DNA of 64,000 nt, from NCBI GenBank assembly GCA_965207275.1, contig CBDBMH010000002.1:465291-529290 (forward strand), given 5' to 3'. Both the position numbers and the translations under genes were made by a program. Positions 454-35,529 of the stretch are shown in pieces (the stretch's first letter is position 1; each line of letters begins with the position of its first letter). The notes under the pieces were generated by a model. It was not told the origin of the DNA. It searched no databases and worked only from the letters and a program-made list of their open reading frames with translations. This stretch comes from Dehalococcoidia bacterium (lineage in GTDB: Bacteria > Chloroflexota > Dehalococcoidia > Lucifugimonadales > UBA3495).

Positions 454-1311
454 ATGGCCGGTAATCGGGTTACGGTAGGCAACGTCGAAATTACCTCCCT
501 GTCCGACGGCATTCTCGAGTTCGACCTGTGCAACTTTTTCCCCAACCACAAGTCCGATGAGGAGTGGCAGGGATACCGCCAGCACCTGGTGGACGGCCAC
601 AAGGTGCGCTTCAACCTGGCCTCCTACCTCATCCGCTCCGATGGCCGCACCATCCTGGTGGACACCGGCATGGGCGCCCGCCCCGAGGGAGAACCCGACA
701 TCCCCTGGGGCGAGTTGATGAACGACTTCCAGTCCCACGGTGTCCGCGCCGACGAGGTCGACATGGTGGTGATGACCCACCTGCACCGCGACCACGTGGG
801 CTGGAACCTGGCGCCCCCCGTCCAGGAGGGCGGCCAATACGCTCCCACCTTCCCCAATGCCCGTTACTGGTTCAGCACCAAGGACTGGGAGGCCTGCCAC
901 GACCCCGACGTCATGCCATCCCGCTTCCCCAACGCGCCCACCACCGTCTGGCCTCTGCAGGACCTGGGTCTCATCGAGTTCATGGACGGTGAGTACGTAC
1001 TCACTCCAGAGCTGACCGCCTTTCCTACCCCGGGCCACACCCCCGGCCACATGAGCATCATGGTCAACTCTCAAGGGGAAAGGGCCATCATCCTGGGCGA
1101 CGCCATCCACAACCAGGCCCAGGTCAATGAGCCTGATTGGGAGTCCCGGGCCGACATGGACCCCGAGCAGACCCGCATTACCCGCCGCAAGCTCATGGAC
1201 CGGCTTGAGACCGAGGATATCCTCGGCATAATCGGCCACTTCCCCTACCCCGGTTTCGGCAAAGTGGTCAGGGCCGACGGCCGCCGCTACTGGCAGGCCC
1301 TGTCCTTCTAA
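454..1311 (+). CDS. MBL-fold metallo-hydrolase (lactonase/beta-lactamase-like)
   Basis: 285-aa ORF with the HxHxDH zinc motif 'THLHRDHVGW', a later 'PGHTPGH' and 'GDAIH'. GGGAGG lies just upstream of the ATG. Confidence 0.85.
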   Translation: MAGNRVTVGNVEITSLSDGILEFDLCNFFPNHKSDEEWQGYRQHLVDGHKVRFNLASYLIRSDGRTILVDTGMGARPEGEPDIPWGELMNDFQSHGVRADEVDMVVMTHLHRDHVGWNLAPPVQEGGQYAPTFPNARYWFSTKDWEACHDPDVMPSRFPNAPTTVWPLQDLGLIEFMDGEYVLTPELTAFPTPGHTPGHMSIMVNSQGERAIILGDAIHNQAQVNEPDWESRADMDPEQTRITRRKLMDRLETEDILGIIGHFPYPGFGKVVRADGRRYWQALSF

Positions 1312-1360
1312 AGAAGTCCCTTCTCCCCTGGCAGGTGAGCGCCAGGACGGTGGTGAAAAA

Positions 1361-1403
1361 TCCCGTCCTTCTTGACGGGGGAGGGTTGGGATGGGGGTGA
1401 AGG
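1361..1403 (+). repeat. family-1 intergenic hairpin repeat (CCCTTCCCC-N-GGGGAAGG-yyGGGATGGGGGTGAA type)
   Basis: TCCCGTCCTTCTTGACGGGGGAGGGTTGGGATGGGGGTGAAGG. Confidence 0.8.
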
Positions 1404-1498
1404 TTCAGGTACTGTCCACTCCCACTCGCAAAAGCCTTTCTAACCCCGCTTTCGGAAACAGCTTCCGGGAGCGCTCAATCACTTACAGGTGAGAATCA

Positions 1499-2551
1499 AT
1501 GAAATTCGGCCTCTTCCATTCGGTCCAGTTGCCCGATCCCGCAAAGCAGAACCAGTACTACCGCGACGCCCTGGAGCAGGTGCTCTGGGCGGAGCAGCTG
1601 GGCTACGATTCGGTATGGATGACCGAGCATCACTTCTCCCGCCACGGTATCGTTTCCGCCTCCCTCACCGTGCTGGGCTACCTGGCCGGCCTCACCAGCT
1701 CCATCCGGCTGGCCACCGCCGTGACCGTCCTGCCCTTCCACAATCCCATCCAGCTTGCCGAGGAAGCCGCCACCGTTGACCTGCTCAGCAACGGCCGCCT
1801 GGACCTGGGGGTTGGCCGCGGCTACCAGTGGGGCGAGTTTCACAAGCTGAACATTCCCATGGACGAAGCCGACCGCCGCTTCCAGGAGTCCATGGACGTG
1901 ATGACCCGCGCCTGGACCACCGACGATCCCTTCGACCACCGGGGCGAGTTCTGGACATTCAACGAAATGACAGTCCTTCCCAAGCCGGTACAGGAACCCC
2001 ACCCGCCCCTGTGGGTTGCCGCTGCCAGCCCCGGCAGCATGGATCGCATCGCCCAGAATGGTTGGAACCTGCTGGTGGGTCAGGGCCTCACCTTCGACCA
2101 GGTGGGTGAACAGGTGGCCTATTTCGGAGGGGCAGTGGGCGAGACCGGCGAGGACTTTGACCCCTCCCGGGTCAAGGTGGCCCGGGCCATGTACACCGCT
2201 CCCACCAGGGCCCAGGCCCGTGAGGACGCGGAGGTACCCTTCATGTGGTTCAAGACCACCGGCGACGAGGTGGGCGCGCCTCCGGAACGCCGGGGTGAGT
2301 TGCTGCCGGAAAACTACCAGGCTTACCGCCGCCGCTTCGCCGCCGAGACCACCTTTGACTTCGACGACATGTCCGACAAGGTTATTCTCTTCGGAAGTCC
2401 TGATGACGTGGCCGAGCGTGTGGAGCGGATGAAGAAGTCCGGCGTCAAGAGCGTCATCTTCTTCACCAATTACGGCGGCATCGAAAGCCAGAAGGTAAAG
2501 GACTCCCTGGAACTCTTCGCCACCGAGGTAATGCCCCACTTCCAGGACTGA
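1499..2551 (+). CDS. LLM-class (luciferase-like) flavin/F420-dependent oxidoreductase
   Basis: 350-aa ORF. The N-terminus 'MKFGLF...LGYDSVWMTEHHFS' is typical of bacterial luciferase-like monooxygenases. The long antisense ORF is a GC shadow. Confidence 0.85.
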   Translation: MKFGLFHSVQLPDPAKQNQYYRDALEQVLWAEQLGYDSVWMTEHHFSRHGIVSASLTVLGYLAGLTSSIRLATAVTVLPFHNPIQLAEEAATVDLLSNGRLDLGVGRGYQWGEFHKLNIPMDEADRRFQESMDVMTRAWTTDDPFDHRGEFWTFNEMTVLPKPVQEPHPPLWVAAASPGSMDRIAQNGWNLLVGQGLTFDQVGEQVAYFGGAVGETGEDFDPSRVKVARAMYTAPTRAQAREDAEVPFMWFKTTGDEVGAPPERRGELLPENYQAYRRRFAAETTFDFDDMSDKVILFGSPDDVAERVERMKKSGVKSVIFFTNYGGIESQKVKDSLELFATEVMPHFQD

Positions 2552-2846
2552 GGCCCAGGCTTCCACGGCGGCGCACCCAAGTCAGCCTTCCACAACACCA
2601 ACGCCGCCATGCCCAGCCTCCACTTCAGCTGGACCTGCATCCTGACTTGTCTTTCGGAAAGTAAGGGGTCGTACCGATGCTTGGGCATTGGGCATTCGCT
2701 GCTGACACTGGCGGCCATCGTGGTCACGGGCAAACATTCCCTGGTGGATGCTCTGGTGGGGGTTACCTTGATTGGGGTGGCGGTTGGTTTGGTGAACACG
2801 GCAAAACGAATGGAAAACCGTTCGCCGCGTCCTGTAGGTTGATACC

Positions 2847-3287
2847 TCAGTCGTTTCTGGCCAATTCCTCATCTATCGGTGGAGGTTCATCAAACGGCAG
2901 GCCCTCCTCCTTGGCGGCCTGCATCCGGCCGTACCAAGCCTTCCACTCCTCTACCTCTTCAGTCGCTTTCCGAATCTTCTTGAGGCTTTCCTCCTTCATT
3001 CGCTGTTCCCTTTCTCTCAGCCACTGAGCCAGCATAACTCCCTCCAGAATAATGTAAGTGCTGGCCGCCATGTTAAGAATGCTGGCGGTCATGCCCTTTT
3101 GTACGTTTAATGTAATCTCTACCCCACCGATACCGCCATGCCTAGCGACCTCGTCCCATATCGTCAGTCCCAGGAAAGTGAAGTATTGCAGTACAAATAA
3201 GACAACATACCAGCGCCAAAGATGCCCGGGAACGCTCCACATCGACTGTCTGCTCCGGGAATTCGTCGCCCTGTCTTCTTGCACCAT
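2847..3287 (-). CDS. hypothetical protein: two predicted TM segments plus a charged coiled-coil C-terminus
   Basis: 146-aa ORF with hydrophobic stretches 'WYVVLFVLQYFTFLGLTIW' and 'ILNMAASTYIILEGVMLA' and a Glu/Lys-rich tail. The stretch is AT-richer than its surroundings, and a TATAAT lies upstream on the minus strand at 3316-3321. Confidence 0.5.
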   Translation of the reverse strand: MVQEDRATNSRSRQSMWSVPGHLWRWYVVLFVLQYFTFLGLTIWDEVARHGGIGGVEITLNVQKGMTASILNMAASTYIILEGVMLAQWLREREQRMKEESLKKIRKATEEVEEWKAWYGRMQAAKEEGLPFDEPPPIDEELARND

Positions 3288-3407
3288 AGCACCGCCCGTT
3301 CATGCTTGACAAGATTATAGGACCATCGGTGGGTTGTGCCGCTACTCCCTCCTGACAGTAGTTTTCCGAGGTAGTCTCAAGGAGATCGTGAAAGTTCGCG
3401 GTGCCAA

Positions 3408-4724
3408 TCAGGCCGGCGGTATCTGTCCCCAAAGGGGATGGCGGAAAGTGGGCGCCAGGGCGGGGTTCATATTCTCACGCCGGCGTGGGGGCGCCGCCAG
3501 TTCCTGGTCTTCCGTATGTGCCGCGAACCGCGACCGCCGGTAGGCGGCGGCCGGCTGCTTCCTTAGGGGCAGGCTGTTGAGGTGGCGCGCCAGGGATTCC
3601 AGGCTGTTCAGGTTGTGAACCGGCAGGAAGTCGTCCAGGTAAGGGAGCGCTGCCTGCATTCCCTGGGTCAGCGGCTGGTAATTGGGTGACCCCAGCAAAG
3701 GGTTCAACCAGATGAGTCGATGGCAACTGCGCTGCAGCCTCGACATTTCCCGGGACAGCAGTTCGGGTTCGCCCCGGTCCCAGCCGTCCGAAATAACCAG
3801 CACTACCGGTCCGTTGCCCAATGTCCGCCTTGCCCACCCGTAGTTGAAGGCCTTGACAGCCTCGCCGATGCGGGTGCCGCCGGCCCAGTCGGGCACGGCC
3901 CTGGCTACCTCGTTCACCGCCTGGTCAACGCCCCGGTGGTTCAGGTACCGGGTTATCCTTGTCAGACGGGTAGCAAACAGGAAGGCCTCAACCCGTCCCA
4001 GATCCCCGTCAATGGTGTGGATAAAGTGCAATAGCAGGCGGGTGTAACGCTCCATGGACCCGCTCACGTCGCATATCAGCACCAGGGGACGGGTCTTCTC
4101 TCTCGGCTGTCGGCGCGACAGGTCCAGCAGTTCTCCGCCGTACTTCAGGTTGTCGCGGAAGGTTCGCCGCCAGTCCAGGGCGTCACCGTCACCCACCTGG
4201 GTACGCCGCGTTCTGCGCTTCCCCAGGTCCCAGGACAGTTCCGACATCATGGAACGGGCCTGGGCAATTTCGCCGTGAGTATAGTCCGCGAAATCCTTGT
4301 GCCGCAGCACCTCCCGGGCGCTGTAGGTCTGGCTCATGTCTATGCCCGGCATTCCTTCGGGCATGTCTCCCACCGGGTCCCCACCTTCATCGTCTCCCGT
4401 GATTGGGGGGCCAACCTGGGGATTTCGGTACCGGCGCTCCTCTCCCATGCTGCGCAGGTCTCTGGTGCTGATGCCGTGGGCCGGCCGCCGCCAGAAAATC
4501 TGGAAGGCGTCGTCAAACAGGGGAAAGTCCTGCTTGCGATGGACCAGCAGGCAGCGGGCGGCGTGCCGGAAATCTTGTCTGCGCCCGATGGGAATGGTCT
4601 CGGTGGCCCGCACCAGGCCCATCATGTTGCCCGAGCCGAAGTCCAGCCCCAGCCGCCGCAGCGTCTCTCCGAAGAGCATCAGGTTATGAAGGATGTGACC
4701 TTCAGATTCCTGTTCAGCGGTCAT
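3408..4724 (-). CDS. VWA domain protein (CoxE-like partner of MoxR ATPase)
   Basis: 438-aa ORF with the MIDAS-type motif 'LICDVSGSM' and 'VISDGWDRG'. It sits 110 bp downstream of the MoxR-like ATPase on the same strand. Confidence 0.8.
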   Translation of the reverse strand: MTAEQESEGHILHNLMLFGETLRRLGLDFGSGNMMGLVRATETIPIGRRQDFRHAARCLLVHRKQDFPLFDDAFQIFWRRPAHGISTRDLRSMGEERRYRNPQVGPPITGDDEGGDPVGDMPEGMPGIDMSQTYSAREVLRHKDFADYTHGEIAQARSMMSELSWDLGKRRTRRTQVGDGDALDWRRTFRDNLKYGGELLDLSRRQPREKTRPLVLICDVSGSMERYTRLLLHFIHTIDGDLGRVEAFLFATRLTRITRYLNHRGVDQAVNEVARAVPDWAGGTRIGEAVKAFNYGWARRTLGNGPVVLVISDGWDRGEPELLSREMSRLQRSCHRLIWLNPLLGSPNYQPLTQGMQAALPYLDDFLPVHNLNSLESLARHLNSLPLRKQPAAAYRRSRFAAHTEDQELAAPPRRRENMNPALAPTFRHPLWGQIPPA

Positions 4725-4833
4725 GGCCTGGCAACTCTAGGAACGTATATATGGATAGCGGTGGGAAACCTGGGTTCGCCGCGTGAAACTAAGTAAGTCC
4801 TGTACATCCCGTGCTTCAATGCTTGAATCACTT

Positions 4834-5769
4834 CTAACCGCGCCGTCCACCCCGTCGGGGGCCCCGGTTCAGGGAGCGCTCCAGGATATTCCGCACCGGT
4901 TCGCCCCGCACCACCTCAATATCGTCCTGGTACTTCAGCATAATTCCCAGGGTATCGTCTATCACCTCGGCGTCCAGTTCCGTCTGGTTCAGGGCCAGCA
5001 GCGCTGATGTCCAGTCAATTGTCTCCGAAACGCCGGGTATTTTGTACAATTCCGTCTCCCGCAGTTCCTGTATGAAGCCCGTAACCTGCTGGGCCAATCT
5101 GCGGGGAGCGTCGGGCAGTTTGGCGCTGACTATCTGCAGTTCCTTCTGGTAGTCCGGGTAGTCTATCCAGTAGTACAGGCACCGGCGTTTCAGGGCGTCG
5201 TGTATCTCCCTTGTCCGGTTGGACGTGATGATGACGACGGGCGGGTGGGCGGCCCGGTACGTTCCCAGTTCCGGGATGGTTATCTGGAAGTCTGCCAGCA
5301 TCTCCAGCAGAAAACCCTCGAACTCCTCGTCAGCCCGGTCCAGTTCGTCGATGAGCAGCACCGGCGATTTTTCCCGGCTCTCGTCAATGGCCTGCAGCAG
5401 GGGCCGTTTGACCAGGAACCGTTCGCTGAACAGGTCGTCGGTTGCCGACTGCCGGTCAACGTCCCCTGCCGCTTCCAACAGCCGGATTTCCAGCATCTGG
5501 CGAGTATGGTTCCACTCGTAGACTGCATGGTTGACATCCAGCCCCTCGTAGCACTGCAGGCGGATTAGCTCGGTGTCCAGGCCCCTGGCCAGGGAGCGGG
5601 CGATTTCGGTCTTGCCCACCCCGGCCTCTCCTTCCAGGAACAGGGGGCGTTGCAGCGTCAATGCCAGGTAAATGGCTACGGCAAGGCCCCGGTCAGTGAC
5701 ATATTGCTGGTTGCGCAGCAGGTTCTGGACCTGATCTATGGATGTGGGCAGGGATTTAGTCGTCGTCAA
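4834..5769 (-). CDS. MoxR-like AAA+ ATPase (CoxD-like)
   Basis: 311-aa ORF with Walker A 'GEAGVGKTE' and Walker B 'VLLIDELDRA'. The start is TTG, with GGAGAG upstream. Confidence 0.85.
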   Translation of the reverse strand: MTTTKSLPTSIDQVQNLLRNQQYVTDRGLAVAIYLALTLQRPLFLEGEAGVGKTEIARSLARGLDTELIRLQCYEGLDVNHAVYEWNHTRQMLEIRLLEAAGDVDRQSATDDLFSERFLVKRPLLQAIDESREKSPVLLIDELDRADEEFEGFLLEMLADFQITIPELGTYRAAHPPVVIITSNRTREIHDALKRRCLYYWIDYPDYQKELQIVSAKLPDAPRRLAQQVTGFIQELRETELYKIPGVSETIDWTSALLALNQTELDAEVIDDTLGIMLKYQDDIEVVRGEPVRNILERSLNRGPRRGGRRG

Positions 5770-5868
5770 GGCAGGCTCTCCGGTAGGCAGGCAAGCGAAG
5801 TAGTGAAAACATCCACTTGCGGAATTTTTGATTTCGTTGACCTATTCTATCCCATCGGGTGTGCCAAT

Positions 5869-6525
5869 TCACCCAAGGATCCAGGTGGAGGGGGATGAGA
5901 ACTCTCCCGCGAAATAATCGCGGACCAGCACCCTTAACCTGGCCCAGTGGTCCCCCAAAGATTCCCTTTCCTCGTCGGAAAGCTGATTGTAGTATTTGCC
6001 CAGCATAGGAAAGCGCCACAGGGGAAACACCCAGAAACCCGGGGCATGGGGACCTGGCTCAGCCTCCCTGGCTATTTCGCCGCTGCTCCCTGTCAATTCC
6101 CAGGACTTCAGCGGCTTCCCCGAATTGGCAATAGCCAGGGCCTCTACCCAGGAGGCCTCCCGCTGTCTGCCGGTAGCATCGTCCAACAAGTGCAGCAGGC
6201 GGCGGCGGCGCTCATTGTCGTCGGCCGCCGGACCGGCAAAACGATGGGTATAGCGGCTTTCCCAGTTGGCCCCCAGGTAAGGCACCACCAGTCCGCCGTC
6301 AGTTGCAATAACCAGCATTCCCGCCAGCCGTGACCATTCCACCGCCTTTTCCATGGCGATGGCCTGGTGAGAGTCGGCGGTTTCGTCAGGGTCGGCGGTC
6401 AGGCCGAGATCAGCGGGGGTGACCGGACTCAAAGGCAACCCCTCCAGCAAAACCCGCAGAGAGCGCTGCTTGGCCGGATTGCCCGTGGCCAGCAGGATGG
6501 GAGTTGGGATGTTGGAATCGGCCAT
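5869..6525 (-). CDS. Ham1/RdgB-like non-canonical purine NTP pyrophosphatase (tentative)
   Basis: 'ILLATGNPAKQRSL' resembles the N-terminal 'ATGNxGK' signature of the Ham1 family. The start is taken at the internal 'MADSNIP', because the upstream extension is Arg/Gly-rich and not protein-like. Confidence 0.55.
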   Translation of the reverse strand: MADSNIPTPILLATGNPAKQRSLRVLLEGLPLSPVTPADLGLTADPDETADSHQAIAMEKAVEWSRLAGMLVIATDGGLVVPYLGANWESRYTHRFAGPAADDNERRRRLLHLLDDATGRQREASWVEALAIANSGKPLKSWELTGSSGEIAREAEPGPHAPGFWVFPLWRFPMLGKYYNQLSDEERESLGDHWARLRVLVRDYFAGEFSSPSTWILG

Positions 6526-17795: not shown

Positions 17796-20282
17796 ATCAT
17801 TAACGCAAACGGTTACCCCATTTCAGGAGATGACGTAGCCCTTTTCATCGACTGGGAAAACTTCAAGATCAGCCTGGCCGCGGGCAGCAGGACGCCAAAC
17901 GTCAGCGCCCTTAAAGAGGAGGTTTCCAACCACGGGAGGGTGGTGGTGGCCAAGGCCTACGCTGACTGGGTTACCAGGTCTCCCGAACTAAAAGGCGCCA
18001 GCCAATTTATCATTGACCCTCCTGCCCTTTACGCCGCCGGTATCGAACCGGTGTACGTGCCCACCCGCCTTCCGCTGGGAAGTCCCTCCGCCATGAACAC
18101 CAGGACCACGCGGGTCAAGAACAGCGTGGACGTGAAGATGACGGCGGACTGCATCGAGTGCGCCCATACCTATCCCAACATCGGCACTTATGTGCTGGTT
18201 TCCGGCGATTCCGACTTCATCCACGTCATCAATTCCCTGCGGGCCATCGGCAAGCGCGTCATCATCATCGGCGTATCGTGGAGCACATCCCGCCGCCTGG
18301 CCGACCAGGTGGACGGGCTGATTCTCTACGATATCGACGTTGATCCCGAGCACCTGCCCGAACCGGAGCCCACGCCTGCTTCCACCGAACGCTCGTCCAG
18401 GTCCAACGGTGGCAATCGCCAGCAGCTGTCCGAGGTGATGCGTCAGATCGAGGAAATCGTCCGCTCCGAACGGCAGGCCGGACGCACCCCACTGTTGACT
18501 TCCCTCAAGCAGCGCATTATGCGCCGCGTGCCCGGGTTCGACGAGAAAAAGCTGGGATTTTCCGGGTTCAAGAAGCTGATGCTCCGCACTGCCGAGGAAG
18601 GCACCATCAAGCTGGTAACGGTGGGTCTGGTGGACTGGGTGATCATGGCCGACGAGCCCGACCCGGTAGAGGCCCACTCCGAACCCGGCTCCGACCGGGG
18701 ATCGGTGGAAACGGTGGCCGCGGACGAGGAAGTAGTTCTCGATGACCAGTCCCGGTCTGAACCCACCGCAGTCGTCGAAACTGCCGCCGAGTCCGACAGT
18801 GCGGTGTCGGATGTGGAGACAACCTCCACCGAAGCCGCCGGGCAGCCGGCCGAAGCTGGCGAAACGGATATAACGCCGGAGACCCTTGTCGCAGCAGAAA
18901 CCTCGTCCGAATCCGATTCCCTAACTGTGGAACTCCCGACTGAAACGGAAGCCTCAAGCGATGCCGGGGAATCGGAAGCTATGGATGAGGTTGCTCCTCC
19001 TGCCCTGTCTCCGGAACTGGCCACGGCGCTGGAGGAAACCCTGGCGCACCTGGAATTGCCCCGGGGACCGGGCGATGGTCAGGACGGACGGCGCATCAAT
19101 GACCTGGTCATCATGGCCGATATGCTGGAGCACCAGGCGGGCATTACCCACGTGGCCTTCAACTTCCTGCTGGCCCAAATCTGCGAAGCTCTCCACCAGG
19201 GCCTGGAAGCGGAGCACCCGGAAATAACCGGACGCTGGGGCGGGCGCACCTACTCCCGCACCTACGTAACCCGCCTCCTCCGTGAGCTGGGCGACAAGGA
19301 AATTTTCCTCCGGGACTGGCATCAGGAGCGGAACGAGGAAACCGGTCGCACCAGTCGCTTCCGTACCTTCAACCTCAACCGTACTCATCCCCTGGTCCGG
19401 GAAGCGCTGATCAGCCAGTGGGGGCCTGACACCAACACCGGGGCCCACGAGCCGGAGGTTGCGGTGGAAGAGGCGCCGGAAGCGCCCCCGGAAATGGAGA
19501 CGTCGGACCAACTGACAGCGCCCACCGGCGAAGTTGCGATGGAGGAGACGGTGGAGGAGGAAACTCCTGCGCCACCTGCCCGAACCGCTCGCCGGCGGGG
19601 AGGTCGGCGTCAATCCGTCAGCGAAGCCACAGAAACATCTGACCAGGCTGTTTCTGAAGCCGAGGCGCCGGAGTCCGTGGCGGACGAGGCTGTGGCCGCG
19701 CCGCCCGCGCGACCGTCCCGGCGTCGTGGCCGTCAACTCCAAACCGCCGAAGACGTCCCGCAAACCTCGGAGCAGGCTCCGGAGCAACCCGGCGCCGAAG
19801 AAGCCGAGCCGGGAGAGTCCGAAGTGGTGGAGGCTGCGCCCGCGCGCCCGTCTCGTCGCCGTGGCCGCCAACGCCAGACCGCCGAAGAGGTCCCGCAAAC
19901 CCCGGAACAGGCTTCGGAGCAACCAAGCGCCGAGGAAGCCGGGTCGGGAGAGTCCGAGGTAGTGGAAGGTGCGCCCGCACGACCATCCCGGCGCCGTGGC
20001 CGTCAACGCCAGACCGCCGAAGATGTCCCGCAAACCCCGGAACAGGTTTCTGACCCGTCCGAGGCAGGGGCATCAGATCTGGGAGGATCCGAAGTGGTGG
20101 AGACACCGCCCGCGCGCCCGTCTCGCCGCCGTGGTCGTCAGCGCCAAACCGCCGAGGAGGTTTCGCCATCCTCGGAACAGGTCGCTGGCCCGTCCGAGGC
20201 AGGGGCATCAGAGTCGGCCATTGCGGCCGTGGTGGAAGACCCAGTCCCGGATGCCGAACCGGCCCCGGCCGCGGTGGATTAG
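17796..20282 (+). CDS. NYN (PIN-like RNase) domain plus OST-HTH/LOTUS domain protein with a repetitive acidic/basic C-terminus
   Basis: The frame is open from 17763. 'DDVALFIDWENFKISL...AKAYADW...LVSGDSDFIHVINSLR' is the NYN/LabA pattern. 'LKQRIMRRVPGFDEKKLGFSGFKKLMLRTAEEGTIKL' is LOTUS-like. The conserved NYN N-terminus lies upstream of the first ATG/GTG/TTG (17940), so the real start is probably non-canonical (ATC 17796 or ATT 17799, after AGGAG 17781-17785). The start coordinate is uncertain. Confidence 0.75.
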   Translation: MINANGYPISGDDVALFIDWENFKISLAAGSRTPNVSALKEEVSNHGRVVVAKAYADWVTRSPELKGASQFIIDPPALYAAGIEPVYVPTRLPLGSPSAMNTRTTRVKNSVDVKMTADCIECAHTYPNIGTYVLVSGDSDFIHVINSLRAIGKRVIIIGVSWSTSRRLADQVDGLILYDIDVDPEHLPEPEPTPASTERSSRSNGGNRQQLSEVMRQIEEIVRSERQAGRTPLLTSLKQRIMRRVPGFDEKKLGFSGFKKLMLRTAEEGTIKLVTVGLVDWVIMADEPDPVEAHSEPGSDRGSVETVAADEEVVLDDQSRSEPTAVVETAAESDSAVSDVETTSTEAAGQPAEAGETDITPETLVAAETSSESDSLTVELPTETEASSDAGESEAMDEVAPPALSPELATALEETLAHLELPRGPGDGQDGRRINDLVIMADMLEHQAGITHVAFNFLLAQICEALHQGLEAEHPEITGRWGGRTYSRTYVTRLLRELGDKEIFLRDWHQERNEETGRTSRFRTFNLNRTHPLVREALISQWGPDTNTGAHEPEVAVEEAPEAPPEMETSDQLTAPTGEVAMEETVEEETPAPPARTARRRGGRRQSVSEATETSDQAVSEAEAPESVADEAVAAPPARPSRRRGRQLQTAEDVPQTSEQAPEQPGAEEAEPGESEVVEAAPARPSRRRGRQRQTAEEVPQTPEQASEQPSAEEAGSGESEVVEGAPARPSRRRGRQRQTAEDVPQTPEQVSDPSEAGASDLGGSEVVETPPARPSRRRGRQRQTAEEVSPSSEQVAGPSEAGASESAIAAVVEDPVPDAEPAPAAVD
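19566..20240 (+). repeat. five tandem 135-bp coding repeats (45-aa units 'PARPSRRRGRQRQTAEEVPQTPEQ...SEVVE')
   Basis: Unit starts are at 19566, 19701, 19836, 19971 and 20106, an exact 135-bp period. The inner copies are nearly identical at DNA level. Confidence 0.9.
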
Positions 20283-30298: not shown

Positions 30299-30349
30299 TA
30301 GCCCCAAGACTTGACCGTAGGTTCAAGACAATCAAAGGGAGGAGTAGCT

Positions 30350-31621
30350 ATGCTCAAAATCGGACATGAGGTTGTTCGACCCGGCAAGAACGTGGGCGAC
30401 GCCCCCGTAACTATCCCCGTACCCGAAGAACTGGAAACCGTTCCTGGTATTCCCAAGGTTCAGCGTGAAGTCGACTGGTACGCACGGGAATATCCAGTGG
30501 AGACCATGAATATCACCGAGCGCGCTTCCCGCGACTGGGCCAACGCCATTCGCGACCAGCACGTCGAAATGCGTGAGATCCGCAAGGAGCATGACAAGCT
30601 CAACCGCTCCCTGATCATGGGCGCCCGCCTCACCGGCGATCTCGAGCCCAGCGCTGAGCCCACCGGCGAAGATGTCAGCGAACTGATCAAGGCCAAGGCC
30701 CGTGAACTGGGTTACGTCGAAGTCGGAATCACCGCTTACGACCCCCATTACACGTACCAGAGCAAGAAGGACTGGGTGAAATTCCCCCACGTCGTCTGCC
30801 TGGCCTACGAGCAGGACTTCGAGCCCACCCAGACCATCCCCAGCGTTGACGCCGAGATCGTGCACTCCAGCACCTATCGGACCGAAGGCGCTGCCGGCCT
30901 GGAGCTCGGCAACTATATCCGCAGCCTTGGCTACCGCGCCCAGGTTCACAGTCCCAACGACAACACCGGCCCTTACATTCCCATGTTCGTGTCTGCCGGT
31001 ACCGGCCAGTTGGGCGCTTGCGGCTACCTGCTGACCCCCCACGTCGGCTCCCGCTGCCGCATCATGATGATCACCACCGACGCCAACGTCACTTATGATC
31101 AGCCGGTGGACTACGGCATCCACGCCTTCTGCCAGGTGTGCCAGGTCTGCGTGAACCGCTGCCCGGGCCGCGCCCTGATGCGCGACAAGATCTGGTGGCG
31201 GGGAATTGAGAAGAACAAGCTCTACTTCAAGCGCTGCCGCCCCGTCATGGCCCGCTACCTGGGCTGCGGCATCTGCATGAAGGTTTGCCCCATCCAGAAG
31301 TACGGCCTCCAGAACGTCATGGAGCACTATGCCGAGACCGGTCAGGTACTGGGCAAGGGCACCCACGACCTCGAAGGTTACACCCTGGAAGGCAAGGGCT
31401 ACTTCGGCCCCGGCGAAATGCCGGTCTTCGATGCCGGTTTCTTCGAAATGCCTCAGGGCGACACCGAAGAGTGGGCTTTCACCGAGTTCAAGAAGGAAGC
31501 CATGGCCAACGGCGGAACCATCACCGACGACATGATCGAGAAGTTCCGCACCGAGGTCGCCCGTGGTCTGTCCCAGAGCCGGGACAACATGGGCATGATG
31601 GAGGAAGAGGACTACATCTAG
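30350..31621 (+). CDS. reductive dehalogenase / epoxyqueuosine-reductase superfamily Fe-S protein (cytoplasmic RdhA-like)
   Basis: Two Fe-S motifs in RdhA arrangement: 'CQVCQVCVNRCP' (CxxCxxCxxxCP) and 'CGICMKVCP' (CxxCxxxCP). They are preceded by 'GQLGACGYLLTPHVGSRCRIMMITTD'. I see no twin-arginine signal and no adjacent rdhB-like anchor. ATG 30350 follows GGGAGGAG. Confidence 0.7.
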   Translation: MLKIGHEVVRPGKNVGDAPVTIPVPEELETVPGIPKVQREVDWYAREYPVETMNITERASRDWANAIRDQHVEMREIRKEHDKLNRSLIMGARLTGDLEPSAEPTGEDVSELIKAKARELGYVEVGITAYDPHYTYQSKKDWVKFPHVVCLAYEQDFEPTQTIPSVDAEIVHSSTYRTEGAAGLELGNYIRSLGYRAQVHSPNDNTGPYIPMFVSAGTGQLGACGYLLTPHVGSRCRIMMITTDANVTYDQPVDYGIHAFCQVCQVCVNRCPGRALMRDKIWWRGIEKNKLYFKRCRPVMARYLGCGICMKVCPIQKYGLQNVMEHYAETGQVLGKGTHDLEGYTLEGKGYFGPGEMPVFDAGFFEMPQGDTEEWAFTEFKKEAMANGGTITDDMIEKFRTEVARGLSQSRDNMGMMEEEDYI

Positions 31622-31684: not shown

Positions 31685-31755
31685 AGTGCCTTCAACTTCC
31701 TTCTTCGCTCAGGGCAACCACCTCCTTGCTTCCGCTGCACACCCAATCGAGGAGT

Positions 31756-31796: not shown

Positions 31797-32096
31797 TTCA
31801 ACCCGATATGGGCGCCAGTCAGAGAACCAGGAACATGTCCAACTTCAGCCCCAAGAGTATAAAGATATCACCACGTCTCCCGTCTTCTCTCGTTCCTTGC
31901 AGGGCAATCGTGCTTTAATAGGGAATTACATACTTCACTTGACGAATCAAGCTGACTGCTGATAGAATCAGCCCATCTAAACGCAACACCCGCTGCGCTA
32001 ACAGCGGGCGAGCGCGGAACCGTAACGCAACTATGGAGGCGGTTCCTCTGTCCAGGACGGGTTGATGGTATCAGCCTGTCTCGGCCATTGGCAATA

Positions 32097-32130
32097 CCTC
32101 CGGCGACGGTTTCGCGCCGGAGGATTTTTG
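32097..32130 (+). promoter_or_regulatory. hairpin with U-tract that also sequesters the SD of the small ORF
   Basis: CCTCCGGCG-(9 nt)-CGCCGGAGG followed by ATTTTTG, then ATG at 32131. The 3' arm contains GGAGG 7 nt from the ATG. Confidence 0.5.
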
Positions 32131-32277
32131 ATGGCAAGGACACGAAGCCGCAACCGGATTAAACAGGCATACACGGCAGCAAAGAGGACGGGCAATCTCC
32201 CAGGCCGCAAGGGTTGGGGCCAAGTGAAGGCCGCCTACCGGAAGTTGGCAGGGGATTCGCCACGCCGGGGCAGGTAA
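32131..32277 (+). CDS. small Arg/Lys-rich protein (48 aa), hypothetical
   Basis: MARTRSRNRIKQAYTAAKRTGNLPGRKGWGQVKAAYRKLAGDSPRRGR*. Its stop lies 3 nt before the MTase ATG. I recognise no family. Confidence 0.3.
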   Translation: MARTRSRNRIKQAYTAAKRTGNLPGRKGWGQVKAAYRKLAGDSPRRGR

Positions 32278-32280
32278 CAC

Positions 32281-34098
32281 ATGAGCAGGTTGAACGTATC
32301 GAACCGCACGTTGGCGATTATGGACAACCTGGCCTTCCTACGGTCCTTGAACAACGAGTGCATCGACCTGATTGCCATAGACCCGCCTTTCGCGGCAAAT
32401 GAGACCTTTACCAGCAGGCCCCGTCCGCCCATCAGCAGGAAGGAACTTGCCGAGGAAAAGGCCCTGGCCAAGTCTCACAAGGCGGCCCACAACGAAGGCA
32501 TAGGGGAATCCAGGGTCAAGGACTACTGGAACTGGGATGATGACGTTCACCCGGACTGGAAGGCCCGCATAGAAGATGATTACCCCAGAGTCTTTGCGGT
32601 GGTTCAGGCGGTCGAGGCTTGCGCCACGGAGAACGAGGCCGCCTACATCTGCTTCATGGCTACCCGGCTGATTGAGTGCCGGCGGGTCTTGAAGACTACG
32701 GGCAGCATCTACGTTCACTGCGATCATCACGCCAATAGCTACCTTCGGATGCTGCTGGATGCCATCTTCGGGGCGGAGAACTTCCGCAGCGCCATCACCT
32801 GGCGGCGGGCCACATCCCACAATGACGCGAAGGGTTACGGAAACATTACCGATACGCTGCTTTACTACTCGGTGTCCTCGGAATACGCCTGGAACGGGCA
32901 GGAAATCACCCAGCCCAAGACCGAGGAACAGTTGAAATCTGCCTATCCGCAAAAAGACGAAAACGGACCGGTCAGGTTCTCCGACCTGACCGGTGCCGGT
33001 GCCACCGACGGAGAGTCCGGGCAACCGTGGAAGGGCTATGACGTGGCTGCCAGGGGGCGTCATTGGGCGCCGCCAAAATCATCCGCCTATGCCTACTGGA
33101 TAGAGGAGCGATTCATCCCCGGTTACACCAGCTTGAGCAGCGTCCACGAGCGCCTTGACGCACTGGATGATGCTGGCCTGATTACCCACCCCAAGAAGGG
33201 CGTTTGGCCGGGGCTGAAACGATATGCTGCTGCCGACAAGGGGAATCCGCCGCAGAACCTGATCCTGGACCCTACCGGATTCACCAACTACAGCACCGGC
33301 GGCGGGGAGTTCGTCGGCTACTCTACCCAGAAGCCCCTGGCCCTCTATGAGCGGCTGATAAAGGCCAGCAGCAACCCCGGGGACGTGGTACTGGACATCT
33401 TCGCCGGTTGCGCCACCACTGCGGTTGCCGCTGAGAGCCTGAAGCGCAAGTGGATAGCTTGCGACATGGCCTATCGCTCCTGGACTATGCTCAAGCGACG
33501 GTTCTACCTGAATGGCTTTGCGCTGTCTGATATGACCGACTCCACGCGGGCGGTGCTGGGAGAGCATCAGACCAAGATGCAGCAGGCCCGGTCAAAGACC
33601 ATTGGCCCCAATGCCTTGCCCAAGCGCACCGACAAAGACCCTGCCCCTTTTCACCCTCTGGAGCAAGGACGGCGGGGAAGGCGCACTACCCAATCAGCCA
33701 GTTGGTCAGGGAGAATCCCAAAAGAGGAAGCTAAGAAGCTGCTGATTGAGCGGTTCGGCCCGGTCTGCTGGGGTTGCGGCTACGAACCGCGCCGGCCAAA
33801 TGGGAGCCTGGACGATACCCTGCTGGAAGTGGACCATATCCGCGCCCGGCGGTCCACCGAGGGAGCACAGGGGAACGATGAACTGTACAATTTGGCCCTG
33901 CTTCACCGGACCTGTAACGGAATCAAGCGGAACAAGCTGACCCTGGAAGAGTTGCGGAACGACAACGCGCTGAACGGGCGGCTGTACGTGGGTGGTTTGA
34001 CCGACTTGGTGGACCTGTACCTTGCACAGCAGTTTGCCCAGGAACAGATAGCGGCCCACGTCTTGAGACATGGGGTGCAACAGCCGATGGCGGTCTAA
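32281..34098 (+). CDS. N4/N6 DNA methyltransferase fused to a C-terminal HNH nuclease domain
   Basis: Motif IV 'LIAIDPPFAANETF' precedes motif I 'VLDIFAGCATTAVAAE', the beta-class order of the N6_N4_Mtase type. The C-terminal ~110 aa read 'CWGCGYEP...LEVDHIRARR...NLALLHRTCNGIKRNK', which is an HNH pattern. Confidence 0.85.
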   Translation: MSRLNVSNRTLAIMDNLAFLRSLNNECIDLIAIDPPFAANETFTSRPRPPISRKELAEEKALAKSHKAAHNEGIGESRVKDYWNWDDDVHPDWKARIEDDYPRVFAVVQAVEACATENEAAYICFMATRLIECRRVLKTTGSIYVHCDHHANSYLRMLLDAIFGAENFRSAITWRRATSHNDAKGYGNITDTLLYYSVSSEYAWNGQEITQPKTEEQLKSAYPQKDENGPVRFSDLTGAGATDGESGQPWKGYDVAARGRHWAPPKSSAYAYWIEERFIPGYTSLSSVHERLDALDDAGLITHPKKGVWPGLKRYAAADKGNPPQNLILDPTGFTNYSTGGGEFVGYSTQKPLALYERLIKASSNPGDVVLDIFAGCATTAVAAESLKRKWIACDMAYRSWTMLKRRFYLNGFALSDMTDSTRAVLGEHQTKMQQARSKTIGPNALPKRTDKDPAPFHPLEQGRRGRRTTQSASWSGRIPKEEAKKLLIERFGPVCWGCGYEPRRPNGSLDDTLLEVDHIRARRSTEGAQGNDELYNLALLHRTCNGIKRNKLTLEELRNDNALNGRLYVGGLTDLVDLYLAQQFAQEQIAAHVLRHGVQQPMAV

Positions 34099-35042
34099 CC
34101 TGCGTGGATGGCGAACACAGGGGCGGTCAGGTCCGCGTACCGGAGCCGCTTGCCGATGCAACCGCGCATCAGGGCCGCCATTTGGCTGAGAGTGTCGGCG
34201 GGCCGGTTGTTGTGGCGGCCCTCGAACTCATTGACGTAGCGCCCCAAGTGCTTGCCGCTCATCCAGTGGTAAATCCCGATGTAGCCGCGCTTGAGCATGG
34301 ACCAGAAGGATTCCATCCCGTTGGTATGGGCCATGTCCCTGACATACTCCCCAACGCTGTGCTTGACTGTTTCGTGGCGGCGGGGAAGGCCGGTGTACGC
34401 CGTGGCTTCGTCGGTGTAGACGATGGCCGTCGGTTCGGTCTTGCGCTGGACGATACCCTGGAGTGTGGATTTGTCGGTCTTTTCGACAACCTCGGCGTCA
34501 ACCTGGTTAGTCTCCCGGTCTTTGACACCGGCGACGGCGGTCTTCCCGACAGTACCACGCCCCGCCTTGAGTTTCTTGGATTCGTGCTTGTTCTTTTCCA
34601 GCCCGCCGATATAGGTCTCATCGGCTTCCACCGGCCCACTGAACACCGGATCGCCGCCGTCCATCGCTTCGCGGATCCGGTGGGCCAGGAACCAGGCGGA
34701 CTTTTGAGTAATACCCAAATCCCGGTGAAGTTTCATGGAGCTTACGCCCTTGAGATTGGTCAAAATCTGGTAGAAGGCAATGGCCCACTTGCGGAGGGGA
34801 ATATGGGAGGATTCCATGACCGTGCCGAGCTTCACCGAGAAGTAGGCGCGGCAATCGGAACACCAGTACGGCATTGGCTTGGCGTTGGGTACTTCGCTGG
34901 TGCGCTCACCGCCACAGCGGGCGCAAGTCCGGCCTTCCGGCCAGCGGATGGACTCGAACCAGTCGAGGGCGGTATCCTCGTCGGGGAACAGCTCCAGCAG
35001 TTCGATTATCCCGATTCCCTTGCGAAAACTCTTACCCGCCAT
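34095..35042 (-). CDS. IS1595-family transposase
   Basis: N-terminal zinc ribbon 'CARCGG...CSDCRAYFS', then a DDE region 'ETYIGG...VYTDEATAY...NGMESFWSMLKRG..H', the typical ISXO2-like layout. Confidence 0.9.
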   Translation of the reverse strand: MAGKSFRKGIGIIELLELFPDEDTALDWFESIRWPEGRTCARCGGERTSEVPNAKPMPYWCSDCRAYFSVKLGTVMESSHIPLRKWAIAFYQILTNLKGVSSMKLHRDLGITQKSAWFLAHRIREAMDGGDPVFSGPVEADETYIGGLEKNKHESKKLKAGRGTVGKTAVAGVKDRETNQVDAEVVEKTDKSTLQGIVQRKTEPTAIVYTDEATAYTGLPRRHETVKHSVGEYVRDMAHTNGMESFWSMLKRGYIGIYHWMSGKHLGRYVNEFEGRHNNRPADTLSQMAALMRGCIGKRLRYADLTAPVFAIHAG

Positions 35043-35203
35043 TGGTGCTCACCATCCCTGATTGATGGGATGATGATAGCTTATTCAGGCCGGTTTGTCA
35101 AGTGAAGTATGTAATTCCCCTTTAATAGAGGGTCATTCTGAGCGAAGCCGAAGAATCTAAACTCTAACCCACTAGCCGGGTTTTGGGCCCGCAACTGGGC
35201 TTA

Positions 35204-35246
35204 GGGGCAGGATTTCAGGCCCTTCGGCTTCGCTCAGGGCGACATG
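35204..35246 (-). repeat. family-2 repeat copy (inverted orientation)
   Basis: The plus strand reads GGGGCAGGATTTCAGGCCCTTCGGCTTCGCTCAGGGCGACATG. Confidence 0.75.
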
Positions 35247-35529
35247 ACCCTTGCCTACCGAATACTTCCCGGCTACAGCCCGAATCTATAAACAGATTGC
35301 CCTGCTGTACCTTGCTAGACAATGGTAAACCCTGTTGTTAAGATTGTTCTACTCGCTCTCAATCGGTTGCCATAACAGGTCGCCGGTATCCTGGCTCTCG
35401 CCTTCAGCATCCTCGGCATGGCGGTGGATGGGCAGCCTTTCGTCGGTAGGTAGCGCCCTCACACTCCACACTCCGTGGACCTGCCTGTCGGGACACAGCC
35501 ATATTTCCGCGCCTTTGGGGGGATTTCCG

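Follow-up and report, generated by a model that had tools for sequence, protein, structure and literature searches.

In the Type IIC restriction-modification (R-M) enzymes the endonuclease and the methyltransferase are parts of one protein, the described members carrying an N-terminal PD-(D/E)XK nuclease and a gamma-class (NPPY) methyltransferase, with the exception of BtgZI, in which an alpha-class methyltransferase comes first and a PD-QxK nuclease follows; exchange of specificity modules has been described for Type IIG enzymes, and R.MboII is listed among the HNH restriction enzymes (PMC4081073). In Helicobacter pylori, target recognition domains (TRDs) have been described to move between paralogous Type III mod genes, and Type III-like Mods without Res occur as solitary methylases (PMC3467074). 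R-M genes with flanking inverted repeats and 8-bp duplications were described by Furuta et al. 2010, as was a Neisseria unit that combines a Type IIG gene with a gene bearing a transposase motif (PMC2853133). Here we analyze a gene found within a 64,000-nucleotide stretch of a Dehalococcoidia bacterium genome (GenBank assembly GCA_965207275.1, contig CBDBMH010000002.1, positions 465,291 to 529,290 of the forward strand; the whole of this stretch is herein referred to as the window), where it is carried by an insertion sequence (IS) of the IS1595 family and faces a convergent transposase gene. Its product joins a methyltransferase resembling the Type III Mod subunit to an HNH nuclease domain at the C-terminus, and we consider it, with a probability of roughly 55%, to be a one-polypeptide R-M enzyme of uncharacterised design.

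The gene is a single intact open reading frame (ORF) with an ATG start, and its product divides into five consecutive segments (evidence in brackets; pLDDT, predicted local distance difference test).

32281..34098, plus strand: methyltransferase-HNH fusion gene, 605 amino acids (ORF, Pfam, homologue alignment, structure model)
32281..32808, plus strand: N-terminal lobe of the methyltransferase, residues 1-176, containing motif IV DPPF at 32380-32391 (Pfam match)
32809..33306, plus strand: variable TRD, residues 177-342 (identity drop in homologues)
33307..33570, plus strand: C-terminal lobe of the methyltransferase, residues 343-430, containing motif X as well as motif I FAGCATT at 33400-33420 (PDB sequence matches)
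33571..33702, plus strand: basic linker, residues 431-474, largely disordered by prediction (pLDDT, composition)
33703..34095, plus strand: HNH module, residues 475-605, with the core C496...N546 at 33766-33918 (Pfam, invariant residues, model)

An earlier note on this DNA, made from the letters alone, had read the N-terminal ~430 residues as a methyltransferase of beta-class motif order, and all lines of comparison agree with it. The N6_N4_Mtase family (PF01555) matches residues 28-396 (E-value 2.8e-37; 129.3 bits against a Pfam cut-off of 26.7), and motif IV (DPPF, residues 34-37) precedes the variable TRD (177-342), which in turn precedes motif I (FAGCATT, 374-380), as is characteristic of the permuted beta class. 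Among the 94-119 close homologues aligned, D34, P35, and P36 show no variation and F37 almost none, and FAGCATT is invariant across all 119. The top PDB sequence matches, over residues 339-408, are M.MboIIA (1g60, the best, E-value 1.2e-13), CcrM, and M.RsrI, and the MTase_III models of PADLOC match as well. A full-length AlphaFold2 model built from 94 homologues (pLDDT 77; predicted template modelling score, pTM, 0.65) has as its best Foldseek matches the Mod subunits of Type III systems (EcoP15I, 4zcf, E-value 1.3e-15; H. pylori, 6k0w; Mbo45V, 7dsu; E-values 1e-15 to 1e-10), followed by M.MboIIA, CcrM, M.BceJIV, M.RsrI, and also M.PvuII (1e-15 to 1e-7 with the EcoP15I Mod included). Having DPPF rather than SPPY as motif IV, the enzyme probably targets N6-adenine. 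Phase variation of the gene was rejected, as it contains neither a homopolymer of six or more bases nor a tandem simple repeat.

The linker and the HNH module likewise bear out the earlier description, with one correction of size. Residues ~440-495 hold 12 K/R against 6 D/E, as expected of the basic linker that had been claimed, with AlphaFold2 predicting disorder at 458-473 and giving pLDDT values of 34-56 across residues ~450-480. Beyond it, the canonical HNH motif is intact (C496-x2-C499 ... D518-H519 ... N537 ... H542-x2-C545-N546); the module that carries it is nearer 130 residues (~475-605) than the ~110 originally proposed. D518-H519 provides the general-base histidine, C496, C499, H542, and C545 the zinc ligands, and N537 and N546 the asparagines, and each of these eight residues is invariant among the 94-119 close homologues; substitution of the catalytic His or Asn, which the earlier note had named as grounds for abandoning its reading, was not found in any of the 119. 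The Pfam HNH family (PF01844) matches residues 513-551 (E-value 3.6e-5; score 24.3 bits, where the cut-off is 21.4), so that both families proposed in the note for a profile check score above their Pfam cut-offs, and several PHROG HNH families match the module (best E-value 1e-8). The model contains the corresponding beta-beta-alpha unit at 515-549 (strands 515-519 and 538-542, helix 543-549). Modelled alone (pLDDT 79), the module has only HNH nucleases as its top Foldseek matches, with a best E-value of only 0.056, its weak fold neighbours being the NmeCas9 HNH domain, PacI, EcoKMcrA, the Gme nickase, Cap5, ScoMcrA, and TagI. Its substrate may be double-stranded DNA, a nick or structured DNA. 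An RNA-guided nuclease was considered and rejected: the NCBIfam IscB match is weak (E-value 6e-5) and limited to the HNH stretch, there is no RuvC domain, and a structured leader upstream of the gene (described below) matches no Rfam family and is confined to this IS lineage.

How the protein relates to the described systems follows from these features. Like the Type IIC and IIG enzymes (MmeI, BpuSI, Eco57I), it holds methyltransferase and nuclease domains in one chain with no separate R or S gene, and exchange of the TRD on a conserved frame is common to both, so that the two activities could shift specificity together; with BtgZI it additionally shares the order of methyltransferase first and nuclease last. 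However, the usual Type IIC/IIG architecture of N-terminal PD-(D/E)XK nuclease plus gamma-class methyltransferase is not that of this protein, which combines a beta-class Mod-like methyltransferase, an internal TRD, and a C-terminal HNH domain. In the Type IIC/IIG enzymes a single specificity module guides both activities, and cleavage falls at a fixed distance and is stimulated by SAM; for such sharing in the present protein, TRD exchange on a constant frame gives indirect support. The Type III Mod subunits, the best structural matches, have the same beta-class motif order and central TRD; unlike a Type III system, this gene has no res partner (SF2, or superfamily 2, helicase plus PD-(D/E)XK), either in the IS or at seven related loci inspected by hand, and the HNH domain is fused where Type III has Res. 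MboII, an HNH Type IIS enzyme with the separate beta-class methyltransferase M.MboIIA, has on two proteins the two activities predicted here for one. The Type IV HNH enzymes (McrA, TagI, ScoMcrA) differ in possessing a reader domain for modified DNA (SRA, EVE, SBD or similar); on the protein analyzed here Pfam shows no such domain, the N-terminal 430 residues being a complete methyltransferase. The literature searched, with REBASE outside its scope, does not describe a beta-class, Mod-like methyltransferase bearing an HNH domain at its C-terminus, and wider literature searches brought up nothing beyond known Type IIG or Type IV systems and unrelated subjects.

The protein belongs to a large family. 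A word-indexed protein search returned 3858 matches at an E-value of at most 1e-3, the best 120 of which are nearly all ~570-670 residues long and 60-92% identical, and an exhaustive search of 50%-identity representatives returned 17,432 clusters at the same threshold (mostly methyltransferase only), with 1723 at an E-value of at most 1e-30. The methyltransferase core is 30-38% identical to methyltransferases that are solitary or encoded by phages or plasmids. In curated records of phages and plasmids only the methyltransferase part finds matches, none covering at least 80% of the protein, and a phage or plasmid origin of the fusion was rejected on this ground. None of 10 clusters carries an informative database name, and one relative is a “hypothetical protein” at NCBI.

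Selection on the gene was estimated against a second version of the whole element, which lies on a metagenome contig (locus L021), is 85.6% identical in nucleotide sequence, and retains the convergent arrangement of the two genes. The ratio of nonsynonymous to synonymous substitution rates (dN/dS) is 0.09 for the whole passenger gene (dS 0.65) and 0.08 for the transposase; within the passenger it is 0.02 in the N-terminal lobe, 0.04 in the linker and HNH module, and 0.20 in the TRD, with dN = 0 in the C-terminal lobe. The gene is not a chance ORF, because more than 100 full-length homologues exist at 60-92% identity and dN/dS is as low as 0.09. The two versions of the element are 73% identical in nucleotides across the TRD and ~90% elsewhere. 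By these comparisons the passenger is a functional, selected gene, with a putative recognition domain that already diverges between the element variants or has in part been replaced.

The same contrast between frame and TRD runs through the family. Mean identity in the 119 homologues is 0.36-0.59 across residues 200-340 and 0.8-0.96 in the frame, and 27 of the 119 combine a TRD less than 35% identical to the query with a frame at 75%. The family is multi-copy in several genomes, and intact paralogues within single genomes pair frame and TRD identities of 94% and 34%, 87% and 29%, and 82% and 28% (overall ranges 81-94% for the frame and 28-34% for the TRD). As shown by alignment, the frame has thus been conserved while the putative central recognition domain was exchanged, including between paralogues of a single genome, a pattern that is the same as in the H. 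pylori mod genes and that also agrees with the specificity modules of Type IIG enzymes.

The nuclease, too, is interchangeable. Among ~105 representatives of at least 450 residues, taken from the 150 nearest 50%-cluster representatives, ~55 end in the CxxC..DH..N..CxxCN pattern, and 45 that lack it have Pfam matches to Mrr_cat (13), HNH (10), HNH_5 (6), HNH_4 (3), T5orf172/MUG113 (2), and Endonuclease_7 (1), counts that may overlap. The nearest methyltransferase relatives are thereby shown to bear, as judged by domain matches, an HNH, Mrr-type or GIY-YIG-like nuclease at the same C-terminal position, and the presence of three unrelated nuclease folds at one position argues that DNA cleavage would be the selected partner activity. 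The genome that contains the window, which is 4.3 Mb in 2 contigs, itself encodes a further methyltransferase with a canonical HNH domain as well as a 700-residue protein (locus L003, 1030-3129; G000:C2:2856302-2858401) in which an extension at the N-terminus precedes a homologous beta-class methyltransferase and the C-terminus is Mrr-like by eye only. The TRD of this 700-residue protein resembles that of a methyltransferase-HNH protein (P0094), which suggests that TRDs may be shared between frames with different nucleases. Fragmentary methyltransferase relatives (loci L005, L006, L008, and L010) were also seen at C2:2254153-2255157 of the same genome (G000), where the frame is interrupted by in-frame stops, and at C2:1888127-1889433, where it is split over several short frames; these two look like decayed copies.

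To place the gene in its genomic context, we collected 80 related loci with search patterns specific to the subfamily, which put no bound on the wider occurrence of the architecture; all come from metagenome-assembled genomes of Dehalococcoidia or Chloroflexi. All-against-all clustering of the flanking ORFs found no neighbour family in more than 13 of the 80, leading us to reject a conserved partner gene, and genes for Res, a helicase or a specificity subunit are absent from the seven loci inspected by hand. Only 6 of the 80 loci have an IS1595 transposase at a distance of up to 4 kb, four of which are identical 3.39-kb copies of one element (see below). Most relatives are stand-alone genes without a conserved neighbour; one is adjoined by an AbiJ/Abi_C gene. 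A profile of the linker and HNH module matches 18 of 301 genomes, in 8 of the 192 genera within the class, and 17 of the 80 loci have no full-length ORF bearing both motifs, a few of these through contig ends.

One stand-alone copy occupies a site that can be compared between genomes, namely the spacer between convergent aquaporin (aqpZ) and citrate-synthase-like (gltA) genes in the genus g20 (loci L105, L108-L110, and L115-L119; flanking genes named by eye, genomes of the genus with shorter spacers left out). The contents of this spacer are as follows.

Empty, ~30-45 bp: 3 genomes
Methyltransferase-HNH gene, a 1.83-kb insert with less than 50 bp of additional DNA at either end: 1 genome
GmrSD Type IV restriction gene (GmrSD_N plus GmrSD_C, 568-581 amino acids): 3 genomes
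DUF3224 gene: 1 genome
ORF of 153 amino acids with no Pfam match: 1 genome

At this site the gene behaves as a single-gene accessory cassette at a position otherwise taken by a recognised defence gene. No target duplication was resolvable at the stand-alone insertion, the genomes being too diverged at ~75% identity. Patchy distribution, decay, and the sharing of a hotspot suggest accessory, defence-like behaviour.

In the window, by contrast with most of the 80 loci, the gene travels in a transposable element, whose boundaries were fixed by comparing the two copies in the source genome: a second copy is 100% identical to 31920-35119, a block of 3200 bp. The element spans 31921-35119 (~3.2 kb), and its parts other than the fusion gene are listed here with its target-site duplications.

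31913..31920, no strand: left target-site duplication CTTTAATA, 8 bp, identical to 35120-35127
31921..31955, plus strand: left terminal inverted repeat of 35 nt, beginning GGGAATTACATACTTCACTTGAC, first 23 nt perfect (inverted-repeat pair and copy comparison)
31939..31968, plus strand: inward sigma-70-like promoter TTGACG-18-TAGAAT, partly within the left inverted repeat (consensus match of 10/12 only)
31972..32129, plus strand: structured 5' leader with four hairpins (fold energy)
32131..32277, plus strand: possible arginine-rich ORF of 48 amino acids, coding status uncertain
34095..35042, minus strand: IS1595-family transposase, 315 amino acids, convergent with the passenger (Pfam, NCBIfam)
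35073..35101, minus strand: inward promoter-like site TTGACA-17-TATCAT for the transposase, partly within the right inverted repeat (consensus match of 11/12)
35085..35119, minus strand: right terminal inverted repeat (inverted-repeat pair and copy comparison)
35120..35127, no strand: right target-site duplication CTTTAATA, 8 bp (read from sequence)

The transposase matches DDE_Tnp_IS1595 (E-value 6.5e-38) and, at its N-terminus, Zn_ribbon_IS1595 in Pfam, and scores 191 bits against a cut-off of 75 with the NCBIfam model transpos_IS1595; its ORF overlaps that of the passenger by 4 bases, stop codons counted. Apart from these two genes the element contains only the possible 48-residue ORF, which upholds the statement of the earlier note that it includes no separate restriction, specificity or helicase subunit. 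The second copy (locus L001, G000:C1:428518-433332, element at ~1140-4339) has CTTTGTAA to its left and TTCAATTT to its right, without a target duplication; simple exchange between the two copies fails to explain this loss, because the duplication of the window copy is intact and there are only two copies. In another Dehalococcoidia genome, four loci (L059, L060, L061, and L080; ~2650-6020 in each) hold the 100% identical 3.39-kb IS1595 elements mentioned above, in which the transposase lies upstream of, and on the same strand as, a 60%-identical methyltransferase-HNH gene. In two of them, L061 and L080, the 8-bp duplications (ATTTCTAT and CTTTGAAT) are swapped, which, on the reading of these flanks, indicates inversion by recombination between IS copies. 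In the source genome, an IS1595-family element has captured the gene as its passenger and moves it as one unit. Contigs of 3207-3618 bp, close to the IS in length, bear several members of the 90%-identity cluster of P0001; assemblers would yield contigs of this size if they collapsed a multi-copy element in the samples concerned.

With the IS1595-family insertion sequences that carry passenger genes and the transposon-like R-M units, taken together, the element shares a transposase, here of the IS1595 type with a zinc ribbon, terminal inverted repeats, an 8-bp duplication, and identical copies, and its IS context would appear to add to those already reported with inverted repeats and 8-bp duplications; it differs in its passenger, a methyltransferase-HNH fusion, in the inward promoter-like sites of both repeats, and in a structured leader of the passenger's own. 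Siguier et al. 2009 reportedly described passenger genes in subgroups of IS1595.

Within the element, passenger and transposase face each other from the inward promoter-like sites in the two inverted repeats, sites whose function is inferred from consensus match, with no terminator between the genes, and mutual antisense interference is possible. Between the left promoter-like site and the passenger, the leader folds at -78.5 kcal/mol (z = -5.2; 0 of 200 shuffles fold as well), and its last hairpin is a terminator-like stem (32097-32123), whose 3' arm contains the GGAGG Shine-Dalgarno sequence of the small ORF, followed by a T-run. The leader is 90% conserved in the L021 element, has no match in Rfam, and did not turn up in front of the other genes of the family. 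The small ORF ends 3 nt before the start codon of the methyltransferase-HNH gene and is open in L021 as well (dN/dS 0.15 over 48 codons), and it has no homologue among 5.8 billion proteins. From its fold and position, the leader together with the small ORF (31939-32280) may form an attenuator that controls the nuclease gene.

The DNA around the element has features of its own. Directly to the right of the IS lies a 100-nt near-palindrome (35138-35237; 50-nt arms, 70% complementary), and a repeated CTTCGCTCAGGGC motif flanks the insertion at 31703-31729 and 35228-35254; the near-palindrome and the repeats may together represent a small repeat or an element resembling a miniature inverted-repeat transposable element (MITE) that was formerly the target region of the IS. 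Upstream of the IS, 30311-31621 (plus strand) encodes a 436-residue protein of the reductive-dehalogenase family with two 4Fe-4S motifs (TIGR02486, E-value 1.5e-27, below the cut-off). Farther away, 17940-20282 (plus strand) is an ORF of 780 amino acids that ends in several tandem copies of a ~45-residue motif (…PARPSRRRGRQRQTAEEVPQTPEQ…), with a local GC content of 0.68.

From this architecture we infer both enzymatic activities, the shared specificity, the cleavage geometry, and the biological role as follows. The Mod-like beta-class amino-methyltransferase would find a short DNA site via the central TRD and methylate the host's copies of that site, and the HNH module, held on a flexible basic linker of ~40 residues, would cut DNA in the vicinity of sites at which the same TRD meets no methylation. 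Because one HNH module provides one active site, two molecules would be required to cut both strands; beta-class methyltransferases and Mod subunits work as dimers, and this enzyme, too, is probably dimeric. A swap of the TRD would alter modification and restriction together, and TRD exchange on a constant frame would be explained because recognition is shared by both activities. Borne by an IS, such a gene would then serve either the host as a defence or the element as a means of post-segregational addiction.

The comparative evidence, namely exchange of the TRD, interchange of the nuclease, the lack of a partner gene, and the hotspot, favours a self-contained R-M enzyme, the first of three readings offered by the earlier note, which had also proposed a methylase that nicks for mobility or homing and an addiction module that stabilises the IS. 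Stabilisation of the IS is too narrow a role for the family as a whole, with an IS1595 transposase near only 6 of the 80 loci; in the IS lineage the element may nonetheless benefit, because the passenger there is under purifying selection as strong as that on the transposase. Several points count against a self-contained R-M enzyme. The HNH module has no significant neighbour among solved structures (best Foldseek E-value 0.056, with PDB sequence and profile searches empty), and the hotspot was compared within a single genus. An epigenetic methylase that stands alone, for example the Mod of a phasevarion, would likewise be diversified by TRD exchange. Finally, a single chain cannot stagger the expression of methylase and nuclease on entering a new host, a difficulty with which the known Type IIC enzymes cope.

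Many HNH proteins are nickases or homing enzymes, and we regard it as unlikely, yet the strongest of the alternatives, that the gene is instead a selfish one, an orphan self-protecting methylase joined to a nicking or homing HNH nuclease that spreads or retains the gene or its IS (by breaks at empty sites, for example, or by post-segregational killing) and does not restrict invaders. The compact cassette between convergent genes with less than 50 bp of extra DNA on each side, the multiple copies in several genomes, the capture by IS1595 in at least two arrangements (convergent in the window and L021, tandem in L059, L060, L061, and L080), passenger selection as strong as that on the transposase (0.09 versus 0.08), and the presence of the Gme HNH nickase among the weak fold neighbours all fit such a gene. 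However, a homing enzyme would normally need neither a diversifying TRD nor a methyltransferase, the nuclease is interchangeable with an Mrr-type PD-(D/E)XK domain that is typical of restriction and not of homing, the IS1595 transposase is found near so few of the loci, and no target-site signature was resolvable at the stand-alone insertion; selfish behaviour and restriction are, moreover, compatible in R-M systems (PMC2853133). It is improbable, and more so than selfish spread, that the protein is a sequence-specific regulatory or protective methyltransferase whose HNH domain serves DNA binding, repair-type nicking or other housekeeping, or is catalytically silent. That account would accommodate the 30-38% identity of the core to solitary and phage or plasmid methyltransferases, the existence of solitary Res-less Mods noted above, and an HNH Pfam score barely over its cut-off (24.3 versus 21.4), but the invariance of D518-H519, both asparagines, and the zinc ligands, together with a dN/dS of 0.04 in the linker and HNH module, is unexpected for a silent domain, relatives swap the HNH for other nuclease folds instead of losing the domain, and the patchy distribution and frequent decay are unlike a housekeeping role.

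We give very little credence to a nuclease that cuts foreign-modified DNA, or kills the cell upon infection, with the methyltransferase acting as a sensor or having an unrelated specificity. Its fold neighbours do include the Type IV HNH enzymes EcoKMcrA, ScoMcrA, and TagI and the effector Cap5 of cyclic-oligonucleotide-based antiphage signalling systems (CBASS), the Type IV gene GmrSD occupies the same hotspot in other genomes, and one relative lies beside the AbiJ/Abi_C gene; nevertheless, these fold matches are not significant, and a complete methyltransferase whose catalytic motifs are invariant makes up the N-terminus, with no reader domain (SRA, EVE or winged helix) on the protein.

A self-contained R-M enzyme with both activities and one recognition module would, at ~600 residues, be a compact single-chain architecture (MmeI-type enzymes have roughly 900-1000) and would represent a Type III-like Mod made autonomous by fusion to a nuclease instead of by recruiting a helicase-nuclease subunit. 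More tentatively, and judging from domain content, the methyltransferase-HNH proteins and their Mrr-type and GIY-YIG-like siblings might together form an undescribed class of one-protein R-M enzymes, in which a tethered nuclease replaces Res, an internal TRD cassette reprograms specificity, and the gene spreads as a single-gene cassette or as IS1595 cargo, possibly with an addiction function. The natural TRD variants on a near-constant frame could give enzymes of many specificities, both as tools and as a means of linking TRDs to motifs. The family is abundant in uncultured Dehalococcoidia, whose defence and epigenetic systems are little studied, and the copies carried by an IS plainly exemplify a transposable element with a candidate R-M enzyme as its only cargo, which bears on how such genes spread and persist.

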